A DNA stretch of 61,484 nucleotides, counting the filler, from Jimgerdemannia flammicorona (Eukaryota), in the NCBI GenBank assembly GCA_003990765.1. It is 2 parts of 2 records of this genome, joined end to end, with 100 filler letters (N's around TTAATTAATTAA, not from the genome) between each part and the next. Parts side by side here need not be neighbours in the genome. Positions count along the whole stretch, not along the records: positions 1 to 30,711 come from RBNJ01000430.1; 1 more part is not named here. One strand, 5' to 3'. Made by a program: the position numbers and the translations under genes. The notes beneath the pieces are model-generated. The model saw only the letters and a list, made by a program, of their open reading frames with translations. It was not told where the DNA came from and did not search any database. Position 1 is the first letter of the stretch. Each line of letters opens with the position of its first letter. Of the stretch, positions 44 through 60,859 are shown in pieces.

Positions 44-664
44 GATAAATTTATCTATAAAAATAAAAATATTTAAAATTTTATAAAAAATTAAATTTAT
101 CTATAAAATATTGTTATATAAGAACTAAGTAAATAAATGAAAAATAAACATATTTCTTTTTCTACATAGATTTTGAATTTTGATTATGTGAGATATGCCC
201 CAGCCTACTGTTAATAATATATTCTTTAGTTCTCTACAAGTAGCATATGTGATGTCACAGCATGTGATCACGCCGAATGCTAGGGGGGACGTCATACATT
301 GGCCCACGAAGAAAGATTTTCACCGCCCAATATTTCAGTGTTTACATCTTTTCCGCGGTCGTCGTCCTCCCAACCTCAAATCCGTCTCAAACAAAGAACG
401 AGAACACCCTGCAATTCCCGTACAGACACTTGGCATATACCATACGCGGTTCTGGGAAGAGTGTGTGTATCTATCCTTTCACCAGGAAACCAATAATAGG
501 TGGCACCAGCTAATATTACATGGTGGCCTTCGGGTGGCTCCGAAGAGAAAAAAGAGGCACGCCGACTCTAGAGGTAAGGAGTGTGGTAGGTCCACCGCGC
601 GGGACGAGCAAATACGCGCGGGTGGCGAGTTGGGAAGGCGACGACCATATGCGCGAAGTTCGAG

Positions 665-672
665 TATAAAAG
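665..672 (+). promoter_or_regulatory. TATA-box-like element upstream of the ribozyme
   Basis: TATAAAAG followed by a pyrimidine-rich stretch, ~115 nt before the cleavage site. Confidence 0.4.
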
Positions 673-780
673 TCAGTAGGCCCCTTTCCAATTCTGAATT
701 CTGTTATCGTTGGTTTTTGAGTTTGACACCCGTTTGGAATACTCTTTCTAACAAACTCTGGCCGGTGCGCCATGCGCTGC

Positions 781-840
781 GCCGGTCTTGGTAGCTTCTT
801 AAGCCAACTGATGAGCCCCTTGAGCAAGGGCGAAACCGGT
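781..840 (+). ncRNA. Type III hammerhead ribozyme (predicted cleavage after GUC at 787)
   Basis: Core CTGATGA 808-814 and GAAA 832-835. Stem II GCCC 815-818 / GGGC 828-831. Stem I TTGGT 788-792 / GCCAA 803-807. Open stem III GCCGGT 781-786 / ACCGGT 835-840. All conserved core positions are present. Confidence 0.9.
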
Positions 841-954
841 CCATAGTACCGAGCAGATTACTGTTGTCAAGCATACAGCGAAATTTTATGAAGATATGTA
901 AACTTTATAATTTATTATAAAATATAATAAAATAATAAAACAAAAGTGAAGTGA

Positions 955-1418
955 ATGATAACACGTATCCCTGGGTTTAACGAAAACTGGCGTGTCCTGC
1001 GATTCTATGGTCCACCATTCCGCGTTCTCTCTTCATTCTGTAGTCTATCCAAAACCTTGAGAATGACTAAGTACCATTTAATGTTCAATTCCCGTCAAGG
1101 GGCCATGCCATTGCTACTTGGCTTATGCCAAGGGGTACTTTCTCGAAGTCATATAATGTGTTTATTAATATTTTATGTGATACTTATTGATTCCGCAACC
1201 GCTTTCTGTTTACTTACATCCATCCATCCATCCAGAGAGTCTCCAAGTAGATAGCCGATATCAACCGCCTCGGAGTGTCCTCCTACTCTAGTGGGTGCCA
1301 ATTTCCGAAGGAGTGTGCGACACCAAAATGGACGTGGTATAATTTGAGGAGACCCGGCACGTAAGTGGATTTTGAAGGATTGAGGTAGTGGGGAATCTAG
1401 TAGGTTTGACGGAGACAT
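955..1418 (-). other. Possible small spliced gene or gene fragment, unknown product
   Basis: ATG ORF 1418->1173 with a GTAAGT donor near 1217; CpG retained. No recognisable domain. Confidence 0.2.
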
Positions 1419-2128
1419 GAGTCATTATAATAATTCATATATACTCTACACCAATTGTTATTCAATTATATCAACGACGCAGTGCTACAACTGGGCCGTT
1501 CACTTGCTTGCCACTCACCTGCTCGCTATTACTTGTTCGTTATCACACCGATCATGCAGCAGGCGACACGGCGAAACAGCCAAATTTGGGTGCGCCACAA
1601 TCCTGGAAACCGATGGCTGCGGGGAATGAATGCCACATTCCGTTGAGGCAGGTGAGAAATTGTGGGCTTGAGTGGAAAAAAAACATGGTTACGGTGATGG
1701 TGGACAGATGGGTCGAGTTCGGGCACTTGTAACCTGCGATGAGCTCCGAGATGGTGGTGCAGATACTAAGGCTTTGTCCCCTCTCTCTCGACAGTCCACA
1801 CATTGCCGCCGACCCAACTTTCCCCTCCTGTCGTTTCTTTCGACAACTACTCTTCCATCTTCTGGGCAACCCTCCCAACTTTTTCCGGGTATTACACAAC
1901 CGGGTCCGACGACCATGATTTCCCAACACTCACAAGATCCTGTGGCAGATCTTTCTAAACATCTGGGTCGTCGTCGTCGTCAACCTCTTCCTCTTCCTTA
2001 CTGCCAACACGGCGCCGATCGATGTAGACGCCGAAGTCAACAAGGCCGCAATGCCACTGGATGGATATGTGGGGAGTGGTCGCGTCCTTAGTTGGAAGTG
2101 CCGCTCAGGGTGGGGTTCACCTCGAGTC

Positions 2129-2665
2129 GGTGAACGGCGTGCAGGTGTGCGGCGGCGAGCAGGTGGATGGTGAGCAGGTGGATGGTGAGCAGGTGAATGA
2201 CGTGCAAGTATACGGCGACGAGCAGGTGGACGGTGAGCATGTGAACAGCGAGCAGGTGAACGGCGGACAGGTGGACGGTGAGCTGGTGAATGGCGTGCAA
2301 TTGCACAGAGGCGAGCAGGTGGATGGTGAACATGCAGGTGAGCGGCGAACAGGTGGACGGTGAGCAGGTAAATGGCGTGCAAGTGTACGGCAGCGAGCAC
2401 GTAGACGATGAGTAGGCGAACGGCGAGCAGGTGAACGGCGGGCAGGTGGACGGTGAATAAGTGAATGGCGTGCAGGAGTACGGAGGCGAGCAGGTGGACG
2501 GTGAACAGGTGAACATCGAGAAGGTGAGCGGCGAGCAGGTGGACGGCGAGCAGGTGAATGGCGTGCAAGTGTACGGCGGTGATTATGTGGACGGTGAGCA
2601 GGTGAGCGGGTGAATGGCAGCGAGACCACGAGCAGGTGAATGGCAGCGAGACCACAAGCAGGTAA
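2129..2665. repeat. 15-bp minisatellite (GGCGAGCAGGTGAAC/GAC, with periodic GGCGTGCAAGTGTAC variant)
   Basis: Roughly 35 degenerate units; inverted copies of the unit (CACCTGCTCGC-like) at 1496-1547. Confidence 0.9.
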
Positions 2666-3679
2666 ATCTTATGATCCTGCACCAGTCTGACGGTTTGCGA
2701 AAGTGGGTGTGCTATTTGATGCGCTAAGAGCGTCCACAAATAACATCATGTTTCTGAAACACTCTAAATGACCTTCACCTTCTTTCCGTAGTGCTCTACA
2801 CAACAATCTAACTCCAAACAATCTGTTGAAATTGTTGAAATTCTTATTATTATGCATCTCGATAATGTGGCTTAGACACGTGATTCTTTGACTACGTCAT
2901 CGTCACTCGATGCATAAAAACGCGAGCAATCAATAAACAACGATGCTGCTCTCCATATTTCCAATAAAGTTACAACAAAGGTTATGAGTCCTTCTTAGTG
3001 GTTAAAAAAAACACCTCTCTAATACTGTACACTACTCTACACTAAGATATCACAAGAAATTAATTAAGGAGCCAGTATGTCAAATATAGTCAAGAGGTTA
3101 ATCCTAATATTTGACAATAAGAATTATGACATTTGGACATTCTATATAATGAATCTCCTGGAAGAATGCAGCTTGGCAGAATATATGAAACTACAAGCAT
3201 GTTTACTATGATTGAGGAAGTATAGTTTCTTTATAGTAAAAATAATAGTATTACTCTTCTTTAGTAACTATAGTTGTAAAAGACTTATTCTTACTATATA
3301 TAGACTGAATATCTTATATTTTAGATTCAAAGAAATTTTCCTTTTAGCTTTATATACCAGTTACTAGTTTTGGTAGAAGTTAACTAGTCTTCTGAAGTTT
3401 AGTCAATTTATAAATATAGTAAAAACTAAATAAGATCAAAACCAATTACTATTATAGCTATTATTACTCTTAGAGTATATTATTATTAATCTTACAGAAT
3501 CAGATACTGATGAAAATATACTGGTTCATTTTAACTATAATGTTAACTTTATACTAGTATATCTAATATGGCAGCTTCTTATTTTACTACTGAGACAAAT
3601 CTTTTATATCAGTATAGCTAATAATTTAATTAATATATTCTAGCTTATTATCAATCAGTTTGTACTAACTGAAGATTTC

Positions 3680-4271
3680 TTTTATATTAAACTCAAAAGA
3701 GATAATTACAAAAATAGCTTTCAATATATATAAGTAATTGCCTATAACTATATATACAGATATCTTCAAACCTAAGACTAAAGTTTCTGACAAGACTGTG
3801 AGAAATAGAATTTCTAAGAAATATAGTTGTAAGTAGTTTATTTATCTCAATTATAATAATAAGAATACTAAATATATGATCTTATATATATTACTTACTC
3901 ACAACTATAAATCTCTTCTATCAAAGCTCATATACTATATTTCTGCTAATTATAAAGCCTCTAAATATATATATGTATATATTAAGAATAAGATTTATTT
4001 TATATAATAAGTCAGAATTACTATTAGTAATATTTAGTTATTACTTTTTATCAAGTATAGTACTGATATAAAGAGTTAAATCATTAAGAATATTTATAAT
4101 ATTATTATTAGTAATCAGTTAACTTGATAGAATTTTCAAGCATAGAACATTCTTATACTCCTTAAGTATAAATATAATAAGAATACTAAATTTGCTTACA
4201 AATTTGAGCTGAATGATCAATAATAGCTCATATATATCATATGGACATTTTTGTAATAAAAATAAATATAT
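3680..4271 (+). pseudogene. Heavily decayed MULE/FAR1-like transposase remnant (target of element A)
   Basis: Manual translation gives a C.WFI...THN(Y/H) FAR1-like motif and KFAYKFELNDQ..LIYIIWTF. Appears to continue for a few codons after 21627. Confidence 0.4.
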
Positions 4272-4436: not shown

Positions 4437-5078
4437 TAGAGAAGGAGGAAGGCCCAGCAGGAGCCAAGGGAGCAAACCTAGAGCCAGTGTCAAAGTGAAC
4501 AGAAGACATGTGGAAAAGCATGTATAAGGGGGACAAATAAAGAATGTAACCGAAAATACATCAGCTGTTTATTGCCATATAAAAACGTAGTCCTTATATA
4601 CAAAATACAACATCTCAAAAGGGAGGATGTGCCATAACTCGAAGTGAACCAAATTAGAAACCATATGACTGCTGGAGATAAGTAGAGATAAAGAGAGAAC
4701 CAATCCCAGTTGTAGGATAAAAATCACAAACAAACACAAACAAAACAAATCCAAATTGGTATTTGTTTTATTTGTATTTGTTTGTAATTTTTATCCTGTA
4801 ACTGGGATTGGCTTCTCTTTTATCTTTACTTATCTCTGGTGGTCATGTGGTTCCTAATTCGGTTTGCCCCGAGTTGTAGCACATCCTCCCTTTTGGGACA
4901 TCATATTTTATATATAAAAACTGCATTTTTATATGGCAATAAATGGCTGATGCATTTTTGGTTATATTCTTTATTTGTCCCCCTTATATGTACACACTCT
5001 TCCATATATCTTCTATTCACTTTGACACTGGCTCTGGATTTGCTCCCTTGGCTCCTGCTGGGCCTTCCTCCTCCTCTA
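4437..5078. repeat. 642-bp near-perfect palindrome (foldback/MITE-like) inserted in LTR1
   Basis: TAGAGAAGGAGGAAGGCCCAGCAGG...CCTGCTGGGCCTTCCTCCTCCTCTA, centre ~4755. Arms differ mostly by transitions. Absent from LTR2 and LTR3. Confidence 0.92.
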
Positions 5079-5388
5079 GTGCTCCCAAACAAGTCAAATC
5101 GAGTTGGGGATTTTTCAATTCAAATCAATTCGAATTAAATTAAAAGTCAAATCAAATTGAGGGTCTGATTCGAACCCTAATTTTCAAAATGCAATAACTC
5201 AGCGTAAACTCATCCAAATCTAACTTACTTTAGCTTGTTAGAATCACATTAATACAGTGAATCTAACAAGCTAAAATATGTTAAATTTAGATGAGCTTTC
5301 GTCGAGTAATTACATTTTGAAAATTAAGGTTCAAATTAGAATTAAGTTTGAGCCAAATTTGATTCAATTCGATTCATTGGGAGCACTA
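5077..5388. mobile_element. hAT-family MITE, copy 1
   Basis: TIR TAGTGCTCCCAA / TTGGGAGCACTA, AATCG/ATTCG-type subterminal repeats, internal ~140-bp hairpin. Confidence 0.88.
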
Positions 5389-5559
5389 GTTATCTCTTAG
5401 ATTGCTTGCAAGGAAGTGTGTATTTGTGAACCAGAACTGACTTTATTTCAGAGGAAATAAGAGGGGTATTTATATAAAATATAATTCAATAGTTGCTAAG
5501 ATATAAAGCTAAATATAAATTCCAATAACTAAAACTACTAAGTTCCAGAGTTGATACTG

Positions 5560-5705
5560 ATGGTTGTACAGGTTCAGGATGCTGGTATAATTCAGTGTTA
5601 TGTCAGAATACCAGTGCTGGCATTATTCAGTATTATCTCAGAATGCTGGTGTTGGTATTATTCAGTATTATCTCAGAATGCTGGTGCTGGCATTATTCAG
5701 TATAA
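5560..5705. repeat. ~30-bp tandem repeats in the family A LTR, upstream (element sense) of the TATAAATA box
   Basis: GAATGCTGGTGCTGGCATTATTCAGTATTA-like units; copy number differs between LTRs. Confidence 0.7.
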
Positions 5706-7081
5706 TAAAGAACTTAGAGTAGAAAGTTTAGGATCATGGGGGCTTCATCCTCATTATTACTGAAGGAGATGATGAGATCCACAAATTCATCATTGTCATC
5801 ATCATATAGGTCATGCATCTCATGTATATTGTGCAGAATGACATCATCACCGATAACATCATCATGTTCAGCAGCGGGGAAATCAGGGGCTCTCCAATCT
5901 ATAAGGTTCTCTTCTACAAAATAAGGAACAAATGTGGGGTCTTGGGGGGGTCTAACCTGGATGCTTGGGCCTTAGAATACTGAGATCAATCCTTATAGGA
6001 ATTGGTCTAGGTTGTCCTGAAGGATGGGATGCCAGAAGTCTTCTACTTCATCACTATTGAGGGTGATAGTGGACTGGACTTCTGTAGCCACCCTGGCTTT
6101 TAGTGCATTGATATGGTGGAATAACAGATCTCTGAAATCTGAGACTCTAATATACTTCAAGTTGGGGATTGACCATGGTGCATGCCTGAAGATCTGATGG
6201 ATCTTCTTAGCTATCCTCATTTCATATATATCCATAGGAGTGGCATCTTGTAGCTCTTGAGTGCTGGCCTGTGGGAACTCCTGGTAGAGGAGGTTTCCTA
6301 TTTCATACTCCTGCCACATTTGGAGATATTCAGTAGCAATAGTGATCTTGGTTTCCATTTCATAACAGTAGAGGATATAGTGATAAGGGTCACTAGTACC
6401 CAGGTTGATACTAGGAGTCCTTCGTGAGTGAGTTCTCATAGTTCTTCTGATGTCTTGGAACATCCTTTCTTCAACTGAAGTACCTTGGTGGTTCCTTGAT
6501 CTTGAGATTTGGCAGACAGCAGGAATTTTATTTGTGGTAAGTCTTTGAGCTATTTTGGGATTAGTGGGTCTTATTGATTGCTATTACTGTAGTTTCTTGA
6601 TCCTTTTTTTATATTCCTCAAGATACTCATACTGTGGTCACAATGACTCACAGTTGGTCATCATTGCTCATCTTGTATGCTATATGATCTCCTTATACTT
6701 CAATCTGGTGACTTGTGAGAAAAGGCTGTCTCCTGTACTGATGTTATCATTCTGAGATCACCATTATATCTTCCTTCTGAATAAGGATCTTCTTGAGCAT
6801 CCTTATTCATTAGTCCAGTCCTGAAAAATTTGCTGATCCTATAACCTCTGGCAAGGAGTTGAAAAGTGATATTTATAAGCTAGCATCTTCTCTTTGTATT
6901 TTGGTATGATGGTGAAGAGTCACTCCCTTCATATAGAGTAAGGGCCTGATTCTGATCTTGACCAATCAGTTGACAGTTTGAACTCCTCTAACTTCAAAAG
7001 TCTCATAGATAAGTAGTTGCCAGTGCTATATCCCTTAGAGAATGGTCCAGACAGATAGCCTGCTGGTCACAGGACATGCTG

Positions 7082-10000
7082 TTACAATTCACAGACTAGA
7101 ACCTCATGAGCAGTCATTATATTTTGCTTCTCTTGTATAGGTTTGTGGTACTTCTTGAGTCTGTTCCTATATACTATGGTAGGCAGTATGGTCTCTGAGA
7201 TTTTTCTAAGCCAGAAGGTAGTTTTCTTGATATCTTGCACATAGAAGGGTCCTTCCCATTTGGGCTCCAGTTTTCGTGACCATGAGGTTTCTATTATATT
7301 TCAATATAGTAGAATCTTTTTCCAATTTGGATGGGGTCTAAAGTCTTGTGATTCTTTTCTGCATTCTTCCTTATTAGCACTTATAACTTGGTGATATAAT
7401 CTTCAGCCTTCTTCCTAATTTAGTATAGTCTTCAGATTTCTGCATCAATCTGTCTCCAAGTTAGTTCTAGATTTGTAGCTGAGGTTCCATTAGAATCTTC
7501 TTCTCCAAAGAGTAGCTCCCTTAGGGTAAAGTGTATGCTCTGTAACTGTATGTCTCATAGGACAGAGAGAGCAGTTGGGAGATAGTTATCCCAATTCTCA
7601 TATGTCTCTGAAATCTTTGCTAGAATGTTCTTGAGGGTCTTATTAGTTCTCTCTGTTTGTCTATTTTCTTGAGGGTGGTACATGATGGTCTTGATGTGCT
7701 GGATCTTGTATTTCTGATACATTATCTCATAGAATCTATTGACAAATTCTGTGCCATGGTCTGTTGTGATTTGCTTCAGTATCTTGTAGTGGCAGATGAT
7801 TTCTTGGTATAGAAAGTCAGCTATAGAGAGAGCATTGGCTTCTTGTAATGCTCCTGCCTCTATCTATTTGGTGAAGAGGTCTACAATAACTATAATATAA
7901 CAGTTTCCTGATAGTATTACTGGTAGTGGCCCAATGATATCTATTGTAATGTGGTGGAAGGGGATAGACTCAATTCTTGATGATCCAGGTACCTGGTCTT
8001 GCTGATCTTATTTCTGTTTTTGGTACTTATCACACCCTTTGACAAATTGGCACAGGTCTTCTTCCATCTTGGGCCACCATATGGTTCTTCTTGCCTTGTT
8101 ATATATGTTGGTTCCTCCTAAGTGTCCTTGCTTGTGTACTTCCTTCATTACTTAATACTTTTTGTATTTGGGTATTACTAGCTTTCCTCCTTTTCTGAGT
8201 ATAGTGTTGTCTAGTTCAAACTATTTCCAAGTCTAGTTGATGATGGTGATTGTCCAGGGTTCAAGGTGGTTGGGCATCTTTTGCTACCCAAGGTAGCTGA
8301 TTAATCTATAGTATAGCTCCTTATTTATGTTGAATAGTCTTGATGGGGGTGTTTCAGGGTATTCTTGAGAGTATATCAGTATTGGTATTAGTTCTTTCTG
8401 AGCCAGTGCTTGACAGTATAGTCATACTCTTGCAGCCTGTAGATTTATCTGGCATATATTCCTTTGGAGTTCAGGGTGTGGAATAGCCAGGCAAGGGTGG
8501 AATGGTCTGTTTGAATAGTGAAGTGTTTCTCAGCTAGGTAGTAGTGGAACTTGTCTACTGCCCAAACTACTGCTAAGCATTTGAGCTTGCATGACTTGTA
8601 GTTCTATTCTGCTCCACAGATACCTCAGCTTACATAGGAGATAACATATTCATCTCCATCTTTCTTCTGAGCTAGGACTGCTCCAAGTTCTATAGCACTT
8701 ACATATGTCTGCAGGATGAATTCTAGGTTCCAGTCTGGTCTTCTGAGGATAGGTGCTTGGATCAACCTGGTCTTGAGTTCATTGAAGGTTTCTTGGTACT
8801 CCTTAGTCTATTTGAATTTGGTTTCCTTCTTCAGTAGCTCATAGATAGGTGCTACAATATTGGAATATCCTTTGATGAATCTTCTATAGTAGCTGGCCAG
8901 TCCAAGGAAGGCATAGACTTCTGTAGTTGTTCTGAATCTTGGGTAGACTACAACAGCCTTGATCTTCATAGGGTCTGTGTGGATTCTGGTCTGGTTGATG
9001 AGGTGTCCTAGATAGGTGATTTCTTGAGCTGCAAACTTGCATTTCTTAGGCTTGATGTAGAGGCCATGCTCCTTGAGCTTCTTGAGGGCTAGCTGTATAT
9101 GATTGACATATTTCTGTGCAGTGTTGCTGAAGATGATCACATTATCAACATAGACAAAGAGCCATTTTCCAATCTTGTTGCTGAAGACTCTATTCATCAT
9201 TCACTGAAAACTTGCTGGAGCATTGTACATTCCAAATAGCATTCACAGGTAGATATAGGTGGTATTAGGTATGATGAAGGCTGATTTCTCACTGGCATCT
9301 TGAATGAGACCAATCTGATGGAAGCCTGAGAACAGATCCAAAGTGGTGTAGTATTTGGCTTCACTTCCAAGGGTGGTAAGGATTTCTTGAATATTTGGTA
9401 AGGGCTGCCTATCCTTCTTGGTGATGGTATTGAGCTTCCTGTAGTCAATGCAAAGTCTTGGCATGAACTCTTCAGGCTTGCTTCCTTTCTTTGGGGCAAG
9501 GACAATGGGTGAGGCCCAGGGGCTGATAGCTTGCTTGATAATTCTGGCTTCTTCTATTTCCTTGAGTTCTGCTTGCAGCCATTCTCTGTAAGCAGGTGGT
9601 ATGGGTCTGGCTTTCTGGTAGATGGGCTTGGTATCACCAGTGTCAACTTCATGGTAGTACTTGAGTTCTTGATTGTGGATATCCCTAAAGTCTGTAGCAA
9701 GTATTCCTTTATTCTGGTGCAGGATCTTGAGAAGTTGTTTCTCTAGGGGAAAGTTTTCTCCAATAGTATGTATATGCTTGTTCTGGTCCTTGTCTTTCTT
9801 GTGCTCAAGTTTGGTAATCTTAGTGGCAGTATAGGCTCCTCTTCCTATAGATCCAAAGCCTTGTTCTCCTCTCTTGGTCTTGATGAGTTTGATGGCTTCT
9901 ATGATCTTAGGCTTCTTGATTTCGTGGATCAGCATCTGGCCAATCCTGTCATGCTTCTTGACTTCAAAGGGAGTGGTGTAGTTGTGATTTCTGACTATGA

Positions 10001-12775
10001 GAAAGATCTTGCCAGTGTAATCAGGGTCAATTACTCCTCCTTCAACTGAGATTTCGCTTTTGGCCAGACTGCTCCTGGTCTTGATAATTTCGGCATGGTT
10101 CTCTGGCAGCTTGACTCCAATTCCAGTGCTAAGTAGAGTAGTGGTCTATGGTTCAAGAGTAGCATCTTGAATGCTGGCAAGGTCCATTCCTATGGCTCCT
10201 TTGGTCTTGTATTCTGAGATCTTGGCTTTGGGGTGAAACTTCTTGACCTTGAGAGTGATGTCTGATTCTTATTCCTCCTTGTCATCACTGTCAGCCTGAA
10301 GCTCTGGGGGCTGGTCATCTTCTTTGGCTTTCCTTTTTGCTTTGGCAGCTTCTTGCTTATATTTTTATTGGCAGATTTTTCTGACTTCACTGATATAGGA
10401 CCAGCAGTCATTCAGTTGTTCAGAGCAGTACATTTTAGTACTATGGGGGCATCTTTCTTGAGGGGCATAGCCATTGATGATCTTGTTGTACCACTGCTCA
10501 TCTGTGAGCTTGGGTGTCTTATTCTTATTCTTGTTCACTGAGTGCATAAAGACCTCTGTATCCTCTTCATCTTCTTCCTCTATGTCTGGTAGGACTTCTT
10601 TGTGGACATTGATAGAGACTTGTACCTTTCTTCCTCTATAGTTGATCTGTATCTTCTGGGCATTGAGATCAATGATGGCCTTGGCCTTGTGAAGCTATTG
10701 GTTGCTAATAAGGATGTCATAGTTGGTGGTACTTATGACAATCATGTCTACTGGGATGATAGCTCCTCCTATCTTAATGGGGACTTCTCAGATTTTGCTA
10801 AGGAGGGTAGCTCATATACTATCTGCTGTGACATAGACCATCTTGATAGACTCTTCAATGTCCCAGCCTAGGTGGTCAATTGCCTTCTTACTCATGAGGC
10901 ATTCTCCAGCACCAGTATCAATGATGGCATCAAAGATACAGTCTTCAATCTGATATGGGGTATAGGCTGATGTCTTGTACTGGTCTTCAGATTCTTCACC
11001 TGAGTTCTTGGATTCTTTCTGTACATTGTGAGCTTCTACAATCTTATACTCTTGATTCTTGGCAGTAGTTATAAGTCCTACTCTCAACTGCTGTCTGAAT
11101 GCAGAGACTTCAGCTAGTTGTCCAAAAGTAGCATTGACCTTCTGTTCCTTGAGGTTCTTGTAGATATCATACTGGTGGATCTTGGTCTTGCACAGCTTCT
11201 GTTCCTTCTTACTTTTGCTTTCTTCTGAGACTGGAGTAGTACCTTCAATGATTTAGCAGGCAGCTTTATCTAACTCTATATCTTGATCAATCTCCTCAGG
11301 TTGGGTCTTGCTTTGAATAGTGATAGCTGGGGTCTTTTTTGGTCTTCTAACTGGCTTGATGTTGCTCTTCCTGTCATAAGGCTTGGACCAGGTTCTGGTA
11401 CCTTCAGTAGTAGGGTAGAATTCAAGCTTCTCATAGTATTCTTCATTATCAGTGTCACCAATCTTCTCGATGACTACTGTATTGGTTTGTTCTCTGGTTC
11501 TGCTAGCATTGCTTGGTTGAGTTTTGTGTTTTGTTTCAGTCATGCAATTCTTTGCATAGTGGCCTTCTCTACATCTGAAGTATGTGATATTGTATTCTTC
11601 TGTAGCAGCTGCAAATCTCTGCACTGGTCTCCTATTGGTGCTTCAGACTTCTCTAACAACATCACCAAGGTGTACAGTCATCTCAGCAAACTGCTTGGTG
11701 AGTTCTTCCACTGGGTCAGCTTTGGTTGCCTTAGGGGTAGGTGGGGTTGATTGTCTGTTTACAACTATGGCAATATGATACTAGTTGACTTTGATGGCTC
11801 CATCTTGATATCAGTTATTTTCTCCATTGAGTGTTCAACAGGGTATCTGGCAGTCCAATATCTCTATACAAAGACTACTTTCTGATCAAGGGTCAGTATA
11901 GCTAGAGTAGACCAGATTGCTAGGGCAATTTCAGGGTAAACTCCTTTGAGAAAGGTTGAATCCACTATTTGTTCCTTGAGGTGGTCATCATAGCCAGCCA
12001 AGACAATCTGGTGACAGATTCAGGTATAAAATGAGTTGGAATCTTCACTAAGTCTCTAGCAGATAGTATTGAGTTGATCCTTGAGAGCTTGCTTGATCTC
12101 TACAATATAATATGTTGTTCTGAGAAAGATCTTCATGTTGGCAAGTTTGGCTGCACCAGCATCAGCAATAGTGGCTGTATTGAACTTGTCTCTGGCAAGT
12201 CCTCTGAGGCTGACTGGTAGAAGGGCCAATTGAGCATCCACACCAAGGGCTCATACAGTGGTGAATTGTTTAAAGTCTTCAATAAAGATCAGAATTGACT
12301 CTTCAGTAGTATATAGTGCTCCCAAACAAGTTGAATCAATTTGAATTGAATCGAATTGAGAGTTAAATGAGTCGAATTGAATTGGGGATTTTTCAATTCA
12401 AATCAATTCAAATCGAATCAAAAGTTGAATTGAATTGAGGGTCTGATTCAAACCCTAATTTTTAAAATGCAATAACTCAGCATAAACTCATCCAAATCTA
12501 ACGTACTTTAGCTTGTTAGAATCACATTAATATGATGAATCTAACAAGCTAAAATACGTTAAATTTGAATGAGGTTTCGTTGAGTTATTACATTTTGAAA
12601 ATTAAGGTTCAAATCAAACTTTGAATCGAATTGGACCTTTGATTCAATTTGAATCAAATAGAATTGGACCCTTGATTCGATCGAATCAAATTGAGTTTGG
12701 GCCAAATTCGATTTGATTTGATTCATTGGGAGTACTAGTAGTATATCCATAGAATGTGGGGGGACATATTTCCAT
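7082..12775 (-). pseudogene. Family A copy 1 gag-pol (gag, CCHC, protease, dUTPase, RT, RNase H, integrase), many stops
   Basis: AIIDTGAG, SPWASPIVL, RLCIDYRKLN, VYVDN (YxDD mutated), WEGPFY. Confidence 0.95.
12314..12737. mobile_element. hAT-family MITE, copy 2, inserted in gag
   Basis: Same TIRs. 8-bp TSD GTAGTATA at 12306-12313 and 12738-12745; the empty site is visible in copy 2 at ~19989. Confidence 0.95.
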
Positions 12776-12895
12776 CTTGTCTTGAATTCTTGCAGGGGTG
12801 ACTCTTGTAGTCAGGGTAGTTTTTGTGGGGATTGTTCATTTTTTAGCTTAAAAGTGAGGGATTCATCTTGAATCACCAGCCAATAGGTACCAAGT

Positions 12896-14447
12896 TGTCA
12901 CATAGTGGTCACTGAGTCCTTCAAATATACCAGATTCTCTTTAAGGTATATCTCTTAGACTAACTCAAGTTTGTTATAAGCAAGTTCTTATTGGAGTGCC
13001 TTCCCAAGGTCTTATAGTCCTCAAACTTCTTATCTTTAACTATCTTGTTATCTCTTAGATTTCTTGCAAGGAAGTGTGTATATTGCACTAAGAGGAACTG
13101 ACTTTATTTCAGAGGAAATAAGAGAGGTATTTATACAAAATACAATTCAATAGTTGCTAAGATATAAAGCTAAATATTAATTCCAATAACTAAAACTACT
13201 AAGTTCCAGGGTCAGTACTGATGGTTGTACAGGTTCAGGATGCTGGCATTATTTAGTGTCACATCAAAATACTGGTGCTGGAACAATTTTGTATCACCTC
13301 AGAATACTAGTACTGGCATTATCCAGTGTTACATGAGGATACCAGTGCTGGCATTATCCAGTGTAATAAAGAACTTAGAGCAGAAAGTTCAGAATCATGG
13401 GGGCTTCATCATCATCATCATCATCATCACTGAAAGAGATGAGATCCATGAATTCATTATGTAGGTCATGCATTTTGCATATGTTATGCAGAATGATGTC
13501 ATCACCAATGACGTCATCATATTTAGCTATGGCAGGGAAATCAGGAACAAGGAGATCTGGAGCTCTCCAGTCTATGAGGTTCTCTTCCACAAAATAGGAA
13601 ACAAATGTGGGGTTTTGGGGAGGTCTAACCTAGATGCTTGGGCCTTGGAATACTGAGATCAATCCTTGCAGAAATTGATCTAGATCTAGGTTGTCTTGGA
13701 GGATAGGGTGCCAGAAGTCTTCTACTTCTTCACTGTTGAGGGTGATAGTGGACTGGGCTTCTGTAGCCACTCTGGCTTCTAGTACATTGATACAGTGAGA
13801 TGACAGGTCTCTGAAGTCTGAGACTCTAACATACTCCAAGTTGGGGATCAACCATGGTGCATGCCTGAAGATCTGATGGATCTTCTTAGCTGTTCTTGTT
13901 TCATATATATCTATGGGAGTGGCATCTTATAGCTCTTGGGTACTGGCCTGTGGGAACTCCCAGCAGAGGAGGTTTCCTATTTTGTACTCCTACCATATTT
14001 GGAGGTATTTAGTAGCAATGGTGATCCTTGTTTCCATTTCACAGTAGTAGAGAATAAAGTGATAAGGGTCTGCAGTACCCAGGTTGACACTAGGAGTCCT
14101 TCTTGAGCAGGTCTCTATGGCTCTTCTGATGTCTTAGAACATCCTTTCCTCAACTGAGATATCTTGGTAATTCCTTAACCTTGAGGTTTGGTGGGTAGCA
14201 GGCATTTCATTTGTGGTAAGTCTTTGAGCTATTTTGGGATTGGTGGTTCTTGTTGGTTACTGCTATTGCAGTTTCTTGATCCTTCTTTTATATTCTTCAG
14301 GATGCTTGTGCTGTAGTTACAATGACACACAGTTGGTCATCATTGCTCATCTTGTATGCTGTATGATCTTCTTATGCTCTGATCTAGTGGCTTGCAAGGA
14401 AAGGCTGTCTCCTGTACTGATGTCATCATTCTAGGATCACCATTACA
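12896..14447 (-). repeat. Family A LTR (shared middle copy)
   Basis: TGTCACATAGTGG...CATTACA, with a PPT on one side and a PBS-like site on the other. Confidence 0.95.
13375..14205 (-). pseudogene. Uncharacterised ~277-codon ORF inside the family A LTR (also 5714-6526 and 20556-21384)
   Basis: MPA..QTSR...MFQDIRR...EAPMILNFLL*. One frame is kept in LTR1 and LTR2 despite an 18-bp net length difference. The stops seen are transition-derived. Confidence 0.75.
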
Positions 14448-14760
14448 TCTTCCTCCTGAATAAGGATCTTCTCAAGTATCCTTATTCATTGGTCCAGTTC
14501 TGAAAAATTTGCTGATCCCATAACCTCTGGCAAGGAGTCGAAAAGTGGTGTTTATGGGCTGACATCTTCTCTTTGTATTTTAGTGTGATGGTGAAGGGTC
14601 ACTCCCTTTATATAGAGCAAGGGCCTGATTCTGATCTTGACCAATCAGTTGATGGTTCGAACTCCTCTGACTTCAAAAGTCTCATAGATAAGTAGTTGCC
14701 AGTACTATATCCTTTAGAGAATGGTCCAGACAGATAGCCTGCTGGTCACGGGACATGCTG

Positions 14761-17700
14761 TTATGATTCATGGACTAGAACCTCACAGGCAGTCATCACA
14801 TTTTGCTTCTCTTGTATAGATTTGTGGTACTTCTTGAGTCTGTTCCTATGTACCATGGTAGGCAGTATGGTCTCTGAGATTTTTCTAAACCAGAAGGTAG
14901 TTCTCTTGATATCTTACACATAGAAGGGTCCTTCCTATTTGGGCTTCAGTTTTCGCAACCATGAGGCTTCTACCATATTTCGATACAGTAGAACCTTTTC
15001 TCCAATTCAGATGGGTTCTAGGGTCTTGTGATTCTTTTCCGCATTCTTCCTTATCAGCACTTGTGACTTAGTGATGTAATCTTCAGCCTTCTTCCTGATT
15101 TGGTATAGTCTCTAGATTTCTGCATCAACCCATCTCCAAGTTAGGTCTAGATTTGTGGCTGAGGTTCCATCAGAATCTTCTTCTCTGAAGAGCAGCTCTC
15201 TTGGGGTAAAGTGTGTGCTCTGTGACTATATGTCTTGTAGAATAGAGAAGGTAGTTGGGAGGTAGTTATCCCAATTCTCATATGTCTCTGAGATCTTTGC
15301 TAGGATGTTCTTGAGGGTCTTATTGGTTCTCTCTGTTTGTCCATTTCCTTGAGGGTGGTACATGGTGGTCTTGATGTGCTGGATCTTGTATTTCTGATAC
15401 ATTACCTCATGGAATCCATTGACAAATTCTGTTCTGCAGTCTGTTGTGATTTGCTTTGGTGTCTTGTAGCAGCAGATGATTTCTCAGTATAGGAAGTCAG
15501 CTATAGAGAGGGCATTGGCTTCTTGTAATGCTCCTGCCTCTATCCATTTAGTGAAGAGGTCTACAATAACTATAATATAGTGGTTTCCTGATAGTGTTAC
15601 TGGTAGTGGTCCAATGATATCTATTGTGATGTGGTGGAAGGAGATAGACTCAATTCTTGATAATCCAGATGCCTGGTCTTGCTGATCTTGTTTCTGTTTT
15701 TGACACTTGTCACACCCTTTGACAAATTGGCACAGGTCTTCTTCCAGCTTGAGCCACCACATGGTTCTTCTTGCCTTGTCATATATGTTGGTTCCTTCTA
15801 AGTGTCCTTGCTCATATACTTCCTTCATTACTTGATACTTCTTGTGTTCAGGTATTACTAGCTTTTCTCTTTTTCTGAGTGTAGTGTTGTCTAATTCAAA
15901 CTGTTTCAAAGTCTGGTTGATGATGGTGATTGTCCAGGGTTTTAGGTGGTTGGGCATCTTCCACTGCCCAAGATAGCTGATTAATCCATAGTATAGCTCC
16001 TTATTCATGTTGAGTAGTCTTGATAGGGGTGTTTCAGGGTATCCTTGAGAGTGTATTGGCATTGGTGTTGATCTTTCCTGAGTGGTGCTTGACAGTACAG
16101 TCATACTCTTGCAGCCTGTAGATCTATCTGGCATATATTCCTTTGGGGTTCAGAGTGTGGAATAGCTAGGCAAAAGTGGAATGATCCATTTGAATAGTGA
16201 AGTGTTTTCTGGCTAGGTAGTAGTGGAACCTGTCTACTGCCCAAACTACCACTAAGCATTCAAGCTTGCATGACTCATAGTTCTGTTCCGCTCTGCTGGT
16301 ACCTTGGCTTGCATAGGAGATGATATATTCATGTCCATCTTTCTTCTGAGCTAGGACTGCTCCAAGTCCTATAGCACTTACATCTGTCTGTAGGATGAAT
16401 TCTAGGTTCCAGTCTGGTCTTCTGAGGATGGGTGCTTGGGTCAACCTGGTCTTGAGTTTATTGAAGGTTTCTTGGTACTCCTAGATCCATTCGAATTTGG
16501 TCTCTTTCTTCAGTAGCTCATAAATAGATGCTGCAATGTTGGAGTATCCTTTGATGAATCTTCTGTAGTAGCTGGACAGTCCAAGGAAGGCATGGACTTC
16601 TGTAGTTGTTCTGGGTCTTGGGTAGGCTGCAACAGCCTTGATCTTCATGGGGTCTGTGTGGATTCCAGTCTGGTTGATGAGGTGTCCTAGGTAGGTGATT
16701 TCTTGAGCTGCAAACTTGCATTTCTTGGGCTTGATGTAGAGGCCATGCTCCTTGAGCCTCTTGAGGGCTAGCTGTATGTAATTGATATATTCCTGTATAG
16801 TATTGCTGAAGATGATCATATCATCAATATAGACAAAGAGCCATTTTCCAATCTTGTTGCTGAAGACTCTGTTCATCATTTGCTGGAAACTTGCTGGGGC
16901 ATTATATATTCCAAATGGCATTTGCAGATAGATATAGGTGGTATCAGGTGTGATGAAGGCTGATTTCTCACTGGCATCTTGAGTGAGACCAATCTGATGG
17001 AAGCCTGAGAACAGATCTAAGGTGGTGTAGTATTTGGCTTTGCTTCCAAGGGTGGTAAGGATTTCTTAAATATTCGGCAAGGGCTGCCTATCCTTCTTGG
17101 TGATGGCATTAAGTTTCCTGTAGTCAATGCAGAGTCTTAGTGCAAACTCTCCAGGCTTGCTTCCTTTCTTCAGGGTAAGGACAATGGGTGAGGCCCAGGG
17201 GCTGATAGCTTGCTTGATGATTCTGGCTTCTTCCATTTTCTGGAGTTCGGCTTGCAGCCACTCTCTGTAGGCAGGTGGTATGGGTCTGGCTTTCTGATAG
17301 ATAGGCTTGGTATCACTAGTGTCAACTTTGTGGTAGTACTTGAGTTCTTGATTATGGATATCCCTAAAGTCTGTAGCAAGTACTTCTTCATTCTGGTACA
17401 GGATCTTGAGAAGTTGTTCCTCTAGGGGAAATTTTTCTCCAATGGTATATGTGTGCTTGTTCTGGTCCTTGTCTTTCTTGTGCTCAAGTTCAGTAATCTT
17501 GGTGGTGGCATAGGCTCCTCTTCCAGTAGATCTAAAGCCTTGTTCTCCTCTCTTGGTCTTGATAAGTTCAGTGGCTTCTATGATCTTGGGCTTCTTGATT
17601 TCGTGGATCAGCATCTGGCCAATCCTGTCATACTTCTTGACTTTGAAGGGGGTGGTGTGGTTGTAATTTCTGACTATGAGAAAAATTTCGCCAGTGTAAT

Positions 17701-20026
17701 CAGAGTCAATTACTCCTCCTTCAACTGAGATTTCGCTTTTGGCCAGACTGCTCCTGGTCTTGATAATTCTGGCATAGTTTTCTGGCAACTTGACTCCAAT
17801 TCCAGTGCCAAGTAGGGTGGTGGTCTGTGGTTCGAGGGTAGCATCTTGGATACTGGCAAGGTCCATTCTTATGGCTCCTTCAGTCTTGTATTCTGGGATC
17901 TTGACTTCAGGGTGAAACTTCTTAACCTTGAGGGTGATATCTGATTCTTATTCCTCCTCATTGTCACTGTCAGCTTGAAGCTCTGGGGGCTGGTCATCTT
18001 CTTCAGCTTTCCTTTTTGCTTCAGCAGCTTCTTACTTATGTTTCTGTTGGTGGACTTTTCTGACTTCACTGATATAGGACCAGCAGTCATTCAGGTGTTT
18101 GGAGTAGTACATTCTAATACCATGGGGGCATCTTCCTTGAGGGGCATACCCATCAATAATCTTGTTATACCACTGCTCATCTGTGAGCTTGGGTGTCTTG
18201 TTCTTGTTCTTGTTCACCGAGTGCATGAAGACCTCTGTATCTTCTTCATCTCCTTCCTCCATGTCTGGCAGGACTCCTTTGTGGACATTGATAGAAACTC
18301 ATATCTTTTTTCTTCTGTAGTTGATCTGCATCTTCTGGGCATTGAGGTCAATAATGGCCTTGGCCTTGTGAAGCCATTGGTTGCCAATGAGGATGTCATA
18401 GTTGGTGGCACTTATAACAATCACATCTACTGAGATGGTAGCTCCTCCTATCTTGATGGGGACTTCTCGGATTTTGCCAAGGGGGGTAGCTTATGTACTG
18501 TCTGCTGTGATATAGACCATCTTGGTGGACTCTTCAATGTCCCAACCTAGGCAGTCAATTGCTTTCTTGCTCATGAGGCATCCTCCAGCACTAGTATCAA
18601 TGATGGCATCAAAGATACAGTCTTCGATCTAGCAGGGGGTATAGGCTGATGTCTTATGCTGGTCTTCGGATTCTTCACCTAAGTTCTCAGATTCTTCTTG
18701 TGCATTGTGAGCTTCTACAATCTTGTACTCTTGATTCTTGGTGGTAGTTGCAAGTCCTACTCTCAACTGCTGTCTGAAGGCAGGGACTTTAGCTAGCTGC
18801 CCAAAAGTGGCATTGACCTTCTGTTCCTTGAGATCCTTGTAGATGTCATACTGGTGGATCTTGGTCTTGCACAGCTTCTGTTCCTTCTTGCTCTTGCTTT
18901 CTCCTGAGACTGAAGTAGTGCCTTCAATAATTTGGTGGGCAGCTTCATCTAACTCCATGTCTTGATCAATCTCCTTGGGTTGGGTCTTGCTTTGAATAGT
19001 GACAGCTAGAGTCTTCTTTGGTCTTCCAACTGGCTTGCTGTTACTCTTCTTGTCATAGGGCTTGGACTGGGTTCTGGTACCTTCAGTAGCAGGGTAGAAT
19101 TCGAGCTCCTCATAGTATTCTTTGTCATCAGTGTCACTGATCTCCTCAATGACTACTGCATTGGTTTGTTCTCTGGTTCTGCTAGCATTGCTTAGTTGGG
19201 CTTTGCATCTTGTTTTGGTCATGCAACTCTTTGCATAGTGGCCTTCTTCTCCACATCTGAAGCATGTAATATTGCATTCTTCTGTAGTAGCTACAAATCT
19301 CTACACTGGTCTCCTGTTAGCACTTCAGACTTCTCTAACAACATCACCGAGGTGTGCAGTTATCTTAGTGAACTACTTGGCAAGTTCTTCCACTGGGTCA
19401 GCTTTGGCTGTCTTGGGGGTAGGTGGGATTGGTTGTCTGTTTATAACTGTGGCAGGTAAGATACTAGTTGGCTTTGATGGCTCCATCTTGATGCCAGTTA
19501 TTTTCTCCATTGAGTGTTCAGCAGAGTGTCTGGCAGTCCAATATCTCTGTACAAAGACCACTTTCTGATCAAGGGTCAGTATAGCTGGGGTAGATCGGAT
19601 TGCTAGGGCAATTTCAGAGTGAACTCCTTTGAGGAAGGTTGAATCTACTATTTGTTCCTTAAGGGTATCATCATAGCCAGCCAAGACAATCTGGTGACAG
19701 ATTCAGGTATAGAATGAGTTGGGATCTTCACTAAGTCCCTGGCAGATAGTATTGAGTTGATCCTTGAGAGCTTGCTTGATCTCTTTGGTATAATATGTTA
19801 TTTTGAGGAAGACCTTCATGTTGGCAAGTTTGACTGCATCAGCACCAGCAATGGTGGCTGTATTAAACTTATCTCTGGCAGGTCCTCTGAGGCTGACTGG
19901 TAGAAGGTCCAATTGAGCATCCACACCAAGGGCTTGTATGGTGGCAAATTGTTCAAAGTTTTCAATGAAGGTCAGGATTGACTCTTCAGTAGTATATCCA
20001 TAGAATGTGAGGGGACATATTTCCAT
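14761..20026 (-). pseudogene. Family A copy 2 gag-pol, many stops
   Basis: Zinc knuckle CFRCGEEGHYAKSC, VYIDD, LQTDVS RNase H, HHCC integrase region, IDIIGPLP. Confidence 0.95.
17525..17925 (-). CDS. dUTPase domain within family A pol (second copy ~9845-10245)
   Basis: Five motifs in order: GAI(R/G)MDL, TRSSLA, GGVIDSDYTGEI, DRIGQM, RGEQGF(G/R)STG. Confidence 0.93.
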
Positions 20027-20121
20027 CTTATCTTGAATTCTTGCAGGGGTGACTCTTGTAGTCAGGGTAGTTATTGTGGGGGTTGTTCGTTTTTCAGCTT
20101 GAAAGTGAGGGATTCATCTTG

Positions 20122-20143
20122 AATCACCAGCCAATGGGCACCA
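20122..20143 (-). promoter_or_regulatory. Primer binding site of family A (TGGTGCCCATTGGCTGG...)
   Basis: TGG 3 nt from the LTR end, with the same site beside the middle LTR. Loosely resembles a tRNA-Gly(GCC) complement with a 2-nt bulge; tRNA identity is uncertain. Confidence 0.6.
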
Positions 20144-20146
20144 AGT

Positions 20147-21626
20147 TGTCATGTAGTGGTCGCTGAGTCCTTCAAATATACCAGATTCTCTTCAAGGTGT
20201 ATCTCTTAGACTAACTCAAGTTTTTTATAAGCAAGTTCTTGTTGGAGTACCTTCCCAAGGTCTTATAGTCCTCAAACTTCTTATCTTTAACTGTCTTGTT
20301 GTCGCTTAGATTGCTTGCAAGGAAGTGTGTAAGTGAAACCAGAACTGACTTTATTTCAGAGGAAATAAGAGGGGTATTTATACAAAATATAATTCAATGG
20401 TTACTAAGATATAAAGCTAAATATAAATTCCAATAACTAAAACTACTAAGTTCCAGGGCTGACATTATTTAGTATCACATCAAAATGCCAGTGCTGGCAT
20501 TATCCAGTATTACATAAGAATACTAGTGCTGGCATTATCCAGTATAACACAGAACTTAGAGCAGAAAGTTCAGGACCATGGGAGCTTCATCCTCATCATC
20601 ATCATCACTAAAGGAGATGAGATTCGCAAATTCATCATTTTCGCGTGCTTTGTTATGCATCTCACATATGTTGATGTTGCATGGGATGACATTATCACTG
20701 ATGACATCATCACATTTGGCTGTGGCAGGAAAATCGGGAATAAGATCTAGAGCTCTCCAGTTCTCTTTCACAAAATAGGAAACAAATGTGGGGTCTTGGG
20801 GAGGTCTAACCTGGATGCTTGGGCCTTGGAATACTGAGATTAATCCTTGCAGGAATTGGTCTGGATTGTCCTGAAGGATAGGGTGCCAGAAGTCTTCTAC
20901 TTCTTCGCTATTGAGAGTGATAGTGAACTGGACTTCTATAGCCACCCTGGCTTCTAGTACATTGATATGGTGGGATGATAGGTCTCTGAAATCTTAGACT
21001 CTAACATACTCCAAGTTGGGGATCGACCATGGTATATGCCTGAAGATCTGATGGATCTTCTTAGCTATCCTTATTTCATGTATATGTATCTATGGGAGTG
21101 GTATCTTATAGCTCTTGGGTGCTGGCCTGTGGGAACTCCCAGCAGAGGAGGTTTTCTATTTCATACTCCTGCCACATTTGGAGGCATTCGGTAGCAATAG
21201 TGATCCTTGTTTCCATTTTATGGTGGTAGAGAATGAAGTAATAAAGGTCTGCAGTACCCAGGTTGACACTAGGAGTCCTTCTTGAGTGGGTTCTCATGAC
21301 TCTTCTGATGTCTTGGAACATCCTTTCCTCGACTGAGATACCTTGGTAATTCCTTGACCTTGAGGTTTGGTGGGCAGCAGGCATTTTATTTGTGGTAAGT
21401 CTTTGAGCTATTTTGAGATTGGTGGTTCTTGTTGGTTGCTGTTACTGCAGTTCCTTGATCCTTCTTTTATATTCTTCAGGATGCTTGTGCTGTGGTCACA
21501 ATGACTCATGGTTGGTCATCATTGCTCATCTTGTATGCCATATGATCTTCTTGTGCTCCAATCTAGTGGCTTGCAAGGAAAGGCTATCTCCTATGCTAAT
21601 GTCATCATTCTGAGGTTACCATTACA
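20147..21626 (-). repeat. Family A LTR (5' copy)
   Basis: TGTCATGTAGTGG...CATTACA. Confidence 0.95.
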
Positions 21627-30711: not shown

Positions 30712-30811
30712 NNNNNNNNNNNNNNNNNNNNNNNNNNNNNNNNNNNNNNNNNNNNTTAATTAATTAANNNNNNNNNNNNNNNNNNNNNNNNNNNNNNNNN
30801 NNNNNNNNNNN
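30712..30811. other. Assembly gap / artificial contig linker
   Basis: Ns flanking TTAATTAATTAA (30756-30767), which has stops in all six frames. Confidence 0.95.
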
Positions 30812-30999
30812 AAAAAAAAAAAAAAAAAAAAAAAAAAGATATATATGTATATACGCTTACGTGTTGCCAAGGTCTGTTATCCGATAATGTTGACATATGA
30901 CCGCCTTCCTAAACGGAATTACGCCCGCGGTCAGACGTCCGCCGAAACCCATTGGTCCGCCTTTTATATTTATGTCATAAATCATTTGAATGATAACAA

Positions 31000-35914: not shown

Positions 35915-35931
35915 TGGGGGCTCAACTGAGA
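35915..35931 (+). promoter_or_regulatory. tRNA-Pro-type primer binding site
   Basis: TGGGGGCTCAACTGAGA versus canonical tRNA-Pro PBS TGGGGGCTCGTCCGGGA; most differences are transitions. Confidence 0.7.
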
Positions 35932-35989
35932 AGATTTCAAAATTGATGTGACTTTTCAGCTCACAAGAACCCACAGTTAAACTGGATAC

Positions 35990-42960: not shown

Positions 42961-43472
42961 GCCAAAGGATTGATCAGCACCTCCAGACATTGGTCCTCAG
43001 CTCCTTCTAAGCTCTACCAGTCCCTCTACCTCAATTCAACCAAGCCAATAGAAGCCCCCTTCAAAGGATCCAAGCTCATCAAGAAAATCTCACCCTGGCC
43101 AGATGTCTACTACAAGTCCACTAACTGCAGGCCTATTATGCAATTGGTGAACAATTGCAGAACCTTCCAGCCCCAGAATAGACCTACATCAGGAACACCA
43201 CAGGTCTGACCAGAAGAGACACTACTGCTACAGACAGACTATACACTATTTACAAATGAAATGTCACAGCCCTGATACAGACACAATTCTCCCTGAATGA
43301 TATTCAAGGAATGAACCCTATTACCTATTTGAGCATCATCAACTCTGTCGAAATCCTATTCCCTGAAGAAGAAGAAGAGCCCATAGAATAGAGTGACCCC
43401 AGTACAGATAATGAAGATGATGGAATAGGTATAGATGCAGAAGCAGCCTATGCTTATTGAGATGATGACTGA
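42957..43472 (+). pseudogene. Extra 172-codon ORF between integrase and the 3' LTR of family B
   Basis: ATG overlaps the integrase TGA (ATGA). Single frame MSQRIDQHLQ...AYYAIGEQL...DRLYTIY...acidic tail, with only TAA/TAG/TGA stops revertible by one transition. Confidence 0.7.
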
Positions 43473-60831: not shown

Positions 60832-60859
60832 TATACTGTACAGCAAATTTGTCTCATTG

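Follow-up and report, generated by a model that had tools for sequence, protein, structure and literature searches.

A complete hammerhead ribozyme motif of type III lies at 781-840 on the + strand of the window (the whole stretch of DNA analysed here, 61,484 nt). The motif is non-random, it belongs to a sequence family with multiple copies in RNA, and transcription crosses the locus. We consider it fairly probable that 781-840 is a solo and, by prediction, probably active member of a multi-copy, highly transcribed retrozyme-like repeat family. In the mechanism that we propose, transcription of the + strand of the locus would yield an RNA that folds into helices I-III, with a predicted pseudoknot between loop 1 and loop 2 (792-797 with 822-827) probably locking the hammerhead fold. 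This RNA would cut itself between C787 and U788, giving an upstream product with a 2',3'-cyclic phosphate and a downstream product with a 5'-OH, the latter starting with the compact ribozyme. The window locus is a monomer: it could cut, and its one ribozyme alone could not release a unit-length circle. Tandem units such as those of the two relatives described below (L003 and L014) should cut as dimers, as in non-LTR retrozymes or satellite-type units, and could give circular RNAs. The family would consist of retrozyme-like, non-autonomous and presumably mobile repeats.

Sequence and fold of the hammerhead motif

Direct reading of 781-840 (+) found every hammerhead core base, the GUC site and three helices, which bears out the intact type III hammerhead seen in the preliminary description of this DNA. 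The positions of all parts are collected in Table 1. Helix III pairs G781-U786 with A835-U840 through five Watson-Crick pairs and G781.U840, and the cleavage triplet is G785-U786-C787. No core position deviates from the hammerhead consensus (clan CL00010), and both the NUH triplet and the A15.1-U16.1 pair are present. The sequence was then compared with a descriptor requiring CUGAUGA, GAAA, UH and stems of at least 4/4/5 pairs. It matched a single place on the + strand of the 61-kb window, 781-840, with helices of 5, 4 and 6 pairs, and none on the minus strand. The same descriptor gave 0 matches in 40 Mb of first-order Markov sequence of window composition and 0 matches in a further 40 Mb of island composition, while the pattern CTGATGA..CGAAA occurs once in the window against 0.10 occurrences expected by chance. 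Because of these 0 matches in 80 Mb of random sequence and of a 40/41 identity to the relative L003, a chance origin is excluded and 781-840 (+) is a genuine type III hammerhead.

Table 1. Features of the ribozyme locus, with positions counted along the window
Feature	Position	Strand	Evidence and remarks
CpG-retaining island (o/e ~1.0), between A/T-rich DNA and CpG-depleted transposons	195..3000	.	CpG o/e
Noncoding transcribed upstream sequence, also in other copies, probably the repeat-unit body	362..780	+	RNA contigs; extent uncertain
TATA-box-like TATAAAAG	665..672	+	Sequence; 122 nt upstream of the cut site
Helix III 5' strand and GUC cleavage triplet	781..787	+	Sequence, Rfam alignment, descriptor match; predicted cut C787/U788
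Helix I (788-791 with 804-807; U792.G803 optional) and 12-nt loop 1 (792-803)	788..807	+	Sequence, Rfam, comparison
Predicted pseudoknot, loop-1 arm, with loop 2 822-827	792..797	+	4 Watson-Crick pairs, 1 G.U, 1 A.A mismatch
Core CUGAUGA	808..814	+	Sequence, Rfam alignment, pattern count
Helix II (815-818 with 828-831) and 9-nt loop 2 (819-827)	815..831	+	Sequence, comparison
Core GAAA (832-835), helix III 3' strand (835-840) and C841	832..841	+	Sequence, Rfam, comparison
Spliced downstream RNA, introns 1361-1559, 1652-1794 and 2662-2791 (GT..AG)	1361..2791	+	RNA contigs, splice sites

A search with the Rfam Hammerhead_3 model, which had been suggested as a check, gave a divided answer. RF00008 aligned over its full length (model 1-54 of 54) with 38.0 bits, corresponding to an E value of 8e-07 for 401 nt searched, or of 1.2e-4 when both strands of the whole window are searched. 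This score does not reach the curated gathering threshold of 48.5 bits, and a default Rfam search reports no match at 781-840. The shortfall is mainly due to a 7-nt insertion in loop 1. Folding energies were also calculated. The hammerhead pairing of 781-840 amounts to -15.8 kcal/mol, compared to -17.5 kcal/mol for the minimum free energy structure, so that an alternative structure is favoured by 1.7 kcal/mol. Left unconstrained, 775-850 folds into a structure other than the hammerhead, with a stability no better than that of shuffled sequences (z +0.23). Nearest-neighbour energetics neither help nor hurt the hammerhead reading of this segment.

Tandem relatives and the predicted loop 1-loop 2 pseudoknot

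Relatives of the motif were searched in contig collections. Scanning metagenome contigs with the core pattern yielded 12 loci, of which only L003 (contig VFQP010074536.1, 1294 nt) is in the window's family. The 11 others were not counted as family members, since they have only the searched pattern in common with it and differ in loops and flanks. L003 is made of two head-to-tail 530-nt units followed by unrelated A/T-richer DNA. Its sequence is identical to window 801-841 at 40 of 41 positions, and the stretch that directly follows its core is identical to window 782-796 at 14 of 15. The match is thus split in two pieces whose order is exchanged, indicating a circular permutation of the module. 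The second relative, L014, came from a scan of prokaryote contigs. It is a 523-nt contig of a Demequina iriomotensis assembly and holds only 1.3 copies of a 394-nt hammerhead repeat. This repeat has no match beyond the L014 contig in the 3.2-Mb Demequina assembly, and L014 is probably a stray repeat or a contaminant, not evidence for a bacterial host. Scans of viral contigs gave 1 and 30 loci, all with unrelated phage-type hammerheads, and two more specific patterns gave 0 and 0. One of these viral contigs (L015) has four hammerhead motifs in a row at 1501-3018, spaced by 423-534 nt and unrelated to the window's family; such clustered arrangements are already known from phages.

L003 and L014 show the same order of parts: helix I 3' strand, core, helix II, GAAA, the palindrome ACCGGU, C and helix I 5' strand. 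Both are type I hammerheads with a loop-less and palindromic helix III, which can therefore form only between two copies. Pairing of helix III between copies is described for newt, amphibian and Penelope-associated motifs in the cited part of PMC7761336. In the window the same palindrome stands on both sides of the motif, at 782-786 and at 836-840, and a loop closes helix I, which results in a self-contained type III motif. C841 is the final base common to the window, its relatives and the other copies. Outside the ribozyme, no alignment is obtained between the unit body of L003 and that of L014, and neither matches the window. Unrelated bodies are usual for retrozymes of different species, as the same source puts it in the part cited (PMC7761336). 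The arrangement in tandem type I units, which characterises non-LTR retrozymes, is found in L003 (2 x 530 nt) and in L014 (394-nt period). On Rfam models both relatives score below threshold, L003 with 23.6 bits (RF02275) and L014 with 28.5 bits (RF00008), the latter through an imperfect type III-like reading just upstream of its core. L003 also has a weak full-length match to plant SRP RNA on its minus strand, at 468-644 and 998-1174 (22 bits, E 1e-3, cut-off 105), which is probably noise. The interpretation of the window and its relatives could be taken further, as the first fungal retrozyme-like family, with a single module (identical in helix I, helix II, loop 2 and pseudoknot) that is type I at the junction of tandem 394-530-nt units and type III in dispersed solo copies, and with the abundant RNAs of organism A (see below) as its circular products. 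We regard this extended reading as doubtful.

Comparison of the three sequences also bears on the predicted pseudoknot. A contact between GCUU 794-797 and GAGC 822-825 had been proposed at the outset; it turned out to be part of a 6-bp pseudoknot that is kept in the relatives through a two-sided change. The window can form 5 of the 6 pairs (one G.U counted), L003 all 6 and L014 5. The exception in the window is the mismatch A793.A826, and the same A.A is found in L014. The two-sided change concerns U797.G822 of the window, in place of which L003 and L014 have G-C. Helix II and loop 2 are identical in the three sequences except for G822 (C in L003 and L014), and helix II is therefore uninformative for covariation. 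A compensatory change is seen in helix I, whose second pair, U-A in the window as in L003, is replaced by C-G in L014. With one event per element among three distinct sequences, these compensatory pairs lend support to the predicted hammerhead fold and pseudoknot. Other copies in organism A RNA have 5' halves ending with GCCAG before UC, or 3' flanks starting with UGGC after GAAAC. Such arms would keep helix III by two-sided changes, which is a hint only, the strings being consensus sequences (agreement 0.54-0.97) of loose contig ends, in which the 5' and 3' arms come from separate, unlinked contigs. Pseudoknots joining stems I and II are reported in about 40% of hammerheads and, from mutation and rescue, as needed for fast cleavage, in the cited part of PMC3088659.

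These comparisons help to weigh the reading of 781-840 as an inactive relic or a look-alike, present through family descent or a match to the consensus, with no cleavage or function at the locus. It would account for the Rfam score of 38 against a cut-off of 48.5, for a helix I of only 4-5 pairs with a long loop, for the mismatch A793.A826 and for the more stable competing fold. It would also agree with the cleavage in vitro of only 1 of 9 predicted Xenopus retrozyme dimers, a figure given in the cited part of 10.64898/2026.07.22.740005. However, the core shows no deviation and the three helices are intact, the A.A in the pseudoknot is shared by L014, and a look-alike arisen by chance is excluded by the identity to L003 and the random-sequence counts given above. 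An inactive relic or look-alike is in our view distinctly unlikely.

RNA copies of the family and the CpG-retaining locus

Two runs of organism A, X1 and X2, were available as assembled contigs, not reads. They represent RNA, because their contigs skip the three GT..AG introns listed in Table 1. Summed contig depth over 726-917, which reflects expression and not copy number, was 3268-3784 in X1 and 2667-3329 in X2, compared to 10-25 and 4-8 respectively for unique neighbours. At least 13 contigs in X1 and at least 15 in X2 match the ribozyme and then depart from the window sequence at 836-846, and other contigs, among those listed, join the window sequence at 799-805 with 5' halves of their own. 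Together with the tandem relatives L003 and L014, these many contigs establish the membership of a repeated family that had been suggested earlier. Copies in DNA are also indicated: in X3, a soil run labelled as DNA, a contig matches only 805-841 within different A/T-rich flanks and represents a further copy in DNA, truncated and belonging to a close relative. Assembled contigs cannot show cleavage ends. One RNA contig, 602-828, spans the predicted cut site, so some RNA or DNA is uncut. No joint leading from 841 back to 788, the mark of a tandem mini-unit, was found among the joints listed, and contigs can miss such joints.

The sequence upstream of the ribozyme is over-represented as well. 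Contig depth over 362-631 was 807 in X1 and 209 in X2, compared to 10-25 for unique neighbours. In one X1 contig, 563 is joined directly to 801 (564-800 missing), and 364-587 recurs with 4 differences in a contig from a soil metatranscriptome. From this over-representation and the junction with 801, the repeat unit probably includes the upstream body. The body has no Pfam match, Rfam gave 0 matches in 150-790 and there are no tRNA genes in the 61-kb window; it is therefore without known small-RNA ancestry. Other copies differ at 498-520 by insertions of 13 or 23 nt, placed after 498 or 508 and duplicating the local sequence, so that copies or strains are polymorphic for a small tandem duplication.

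Since contig depth measures expression, the abundant RNAs could be those of an RNA replicon. The window would then hold an endogenised piece of a circular RNA replicon, viroid-like or ambivirus-like, that is abundant in organism A, and the RNA contigs would be variants of this replicon and not genomic repeats. The very high RNA depth of the core, its many sequence variants and the GC-rich units of 394-530 nt in its relatives are consistent with such an origin. In addition, type III hammerheads are typical of infectious circular RNAs, fungal ones included, in the cited part of PMC13725137. But replicons of this kind have ribozymes in both polarities and no DNA template, and a search for all Rfam ribozyme classes gave nothing on the opposite strand in any of the three DNA copies (window, L003 and L014). 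L003 has a unique genomic flank and the soil DNA-labelled copy has other flanks than the window. The units of L003 and L014 fold into branched, not rod-like, structures whose stability exceeds that of shuffled sequences only weakly (z -2.3 and -1.5), and viral contigs gave nothing but the unrelated phage hammerheads mentioned above (1, 30, 0 and 0 loci). Window 340-880 is not rod-like either (z -1.1 against shuffles). The integrated viroid-like RNA put forward in the preliminary description finds no support in these data, and we judge a replicon origin very improbable.

The ribozyme lies in a region whose CpG content sets it apart from the neighbouring transposons, as had been observed before: the CpG o/e ratio reaches 1.0 over 195-880 and 0.97 over 880-3000, compared to 0.06-0.28 in six transposon blocks. 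The ribozyme island is unmethylated-looking and has escaped whatever depletes CpG in the transposons. In these blocks GpC is normal (0.78-0.93). Transcription can be followed in RNA contigs through 812-1262 into the spliced + strand RNA. Once its three placed introns are removed, this downstream RNA shows no clean ORF and no Pfam match. Between 1300 and 3000 (+) it contains a block of 15-nt tandem repeats (2090-2615) whose length varies between contigs. As to the start of transcription, TATAAAAG might be a promoter, judging from its sequence; RNA contigs have their starts further upstream (602 and 535), and it therefore need not be one.

This arrangement raises the alternative of a domesticated cis-acting ribozyme in the leader of the downstream spliced RNA (~900-3000), or in a small TATA-driven transcript, which would trim the 5' end or control the level of the RNA. 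The unmethylated-looking island, the TATA-like box 122 nt upstream and the contigs leading from 812 to 1262 into spliced RNA of the same strand would all suit a device of this type, and in X1 contig depth falls from 177 (602-828) to 25 (812-1100) across the ribozyme, although contig depths cannot rank the parts of a transcript. Roles in 5'-end processing and in translation are described for ribozymes, such as those located at the 5' termini of RNAs from retrotransposons and viruses, in the cited parts of PMC13725137 and PMC7761336. Yet the same module occurs in many other contexts and is thus no single-gene device, the downstream RNA has no ORF to control that we could find, and the contigs that begin upstream of the TATA-like box also speak against it. 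A domesticated leader ribozyme appears unlikely.

Known hammerhead-bearing elements and the transposon surroundings

Type III motifs are known from the LTRs of plant retrozymes, and type I motifs from tandem non-LTR retrozymes and from Penelope-like elements (PLEs) of animals, as described in the cited parts of PMC7761336, 10.64898/2026.07.22.740005 and PMC8557442. We looked for the corresponding architectures in the window. No second hammerhead, direct repeat or LTR was found in its 61 kb, and no PBS-like feature was noted; window 150-1000 has no match elsewhere in the window and lies outside all repeat families identified there. The plant-type LTR layout has two type III hammerheads in direct repeats a few hundred bp apart, together with TSD, PBS and PPT, and the window has one hammerhead in 61 kb; the non-LTR layout has tandem type I units, and the window copy is solo and of type III. 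Coding capacity was assessed by a Pfam scan of 51 ORFs picked by hand from the 92 with 110 aa or more, the two overlapping the ribozyme region among them, and of 12 further ORFs. The scanned ORFs gave only Gypsy-type domains (RVT_1, RNase H, integrase, dUTPase) and LINE-type domains (Exo_endo_phos with RVT_1). Neither a GIY-YIG domain nor a Penelope-like gene was found among them, with the limit that Pfam RVT_1 does not separate the RTs of PLEs from others. A hammerhead in the pseudo-LTR of a PLE RT-coding element was accordingly not seen in the scanned ORFs, in which RVT_1 is not PLE-specific, and there are no telomeric repeats next to the motif. The window copy thus has the architecture of none of these retrozyme or PLE classes, and L003 and L014 have that of tandem type I units. 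The suggestion that the motif is a solo LTR of a retrozyme or PLE finds no support at this locus: the window has no second hammerhead, direct repeat or LTR, no PLE RT or GIY-YIG gene turned up in the scanned ORFs, and L003 and L014, the nearest in sequence, are built of type I units in tandem and are not LTR elements.

Compared with the type III hammerheads of RF00008 (viroids, satellite RNAs and plant LTR retrozymes), which is the best Rfam match of the window over the full model length, the topology is the same, with helix III open and helices I and II capped, as are the 11 core bases, the GUC site and the pairs A15.1-U16.1 and G10.1-C11.1. The window copy differs by its score below the gathering threshold, by a longer loop 1 with a Watson-Crick pseudoknot to loop 2, and by being DNA-encoded in a non-plant-looking, transposon-rich eukaryote. 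Plant LTR retrozymes have a pair of ~350-bp LTRs with PBS and PPT, the features listed in the cited part of PMC7761336, and the window copy does not show this layout. L003 and L014 resemble metazoan non-LTR retrozymes and satellite-type repeats in their head-to-tail units with one type I hammerhead each, and the bodies of the former are likewise unrelated between sources, whereas the window copy is solo and of type III. Their units are, by eye, ~60% GC and longer than the metazoan ones, which have less than 50% GC and 150-300 bp in the source as cited (PMC7761336). As in the amphibian and Penelope-associated motifs of that source, a weak or absent helix III in L003 and L014 implies cleavage as dimers (PMC7761336).

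In L003 and L014 nothing is left of helix III, as in the minimal type I motifs of Penelope-like elements, Athena/Coprina and Terminons. In contrast to these elements, the scanned ORFs of the window hold no Penelope-like RT or GIY-YIG domain and no telomeric repeats adjoin the motif. The window's family also keeps the full tertiary contact between helix I and loop 2, which is given as absent from minimal PLE motifs in the cited part of PMC7761336. Coprina elements occur in fungi and have hammerheads near their 3' ends, according to the cited part of PMC8557442. Hammerheads on interspersed repeats of the fungus Yarrowia lipolytica were reported in 2011 (Perreault et al., PMC3088659, in the part cited); like the present family they are DNA-encoded and multi-copy, a likeness drawn from the description only. 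In the literature searched, outside of which lay most subscription journals, we came across neither retrozymes nor tandem repeats with hammerheads described from fungal DNA.

Repeat-borne genomic hammerheads are already known in animals, plants and one yeast, and the present family opens no new category. Near-identical ribozyme modules in two circular permutations, type III here and type I in tandem units, nevertheless make a clean natural example that bears on the interconversion of hammerhead topologies and on the origin of retrozyme-like elements. If true, the type I/type III pair would be a direct trace of such interconversion through circular or multimeric RNA intermediates. A loop 1-loop 2 pseudoknot backed by a two-sided change is a further addition. 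The finding also points to a very abundant population of ribozyme-bearing RNA in a eukaryote associated with soil and roots; should the organism prove to be fungal and these RNAs circular, retrozymes would be extended to a third kingdom. The permutation and the abundant RNA make the locus worth following up.

The rest of the window consists of degenerate Gypsy elements with dUTPase and of LINE copies with AP-endonuclease and RT. Gypsy-like blocks extend over 5000-21400 and 35000-44500, and LINE-like blocks over 25000-31000, 48000-54000 and 55000-61000. The best relatives of the LINE RTs are 60-70% identical and the named ones 25-35% (fish, Mucoromycota), while distant named relatives of the Gypsy/dUTPase ORF are from cestodes and a spider; neighbours in the Atlas are from plants and Basidiomycota. 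A fungal host is plausible: the short GT..AG introns, the dUTPase-bearing Gypsy elements and the presence in soil and root libraries would agree with a fungus, though not as proof. Small shares of the stretch in the root metatranscriptome runs X5-X7 do not count here as evidence of habitat. Three LINE copies display an extreme skew of G over C on the + strand (0.35-0.58). At 4523-4988 there is an inverted repeat with 233-nt arms, no spacer and 82% complementarity, which scores 81.9 bits on a plant miRNA-precursor model, far under the cut-off of 211. It probably belongs to the foldback or MITE-like elements. A run of 40 A (1-40) opens the window, and the two runs of 44 N at 30712-30755 and 30768-30811 are the filler joint between records. 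Hairpins similar to that of 4523-4988 are present at 5164-5340 and 12394-12666.
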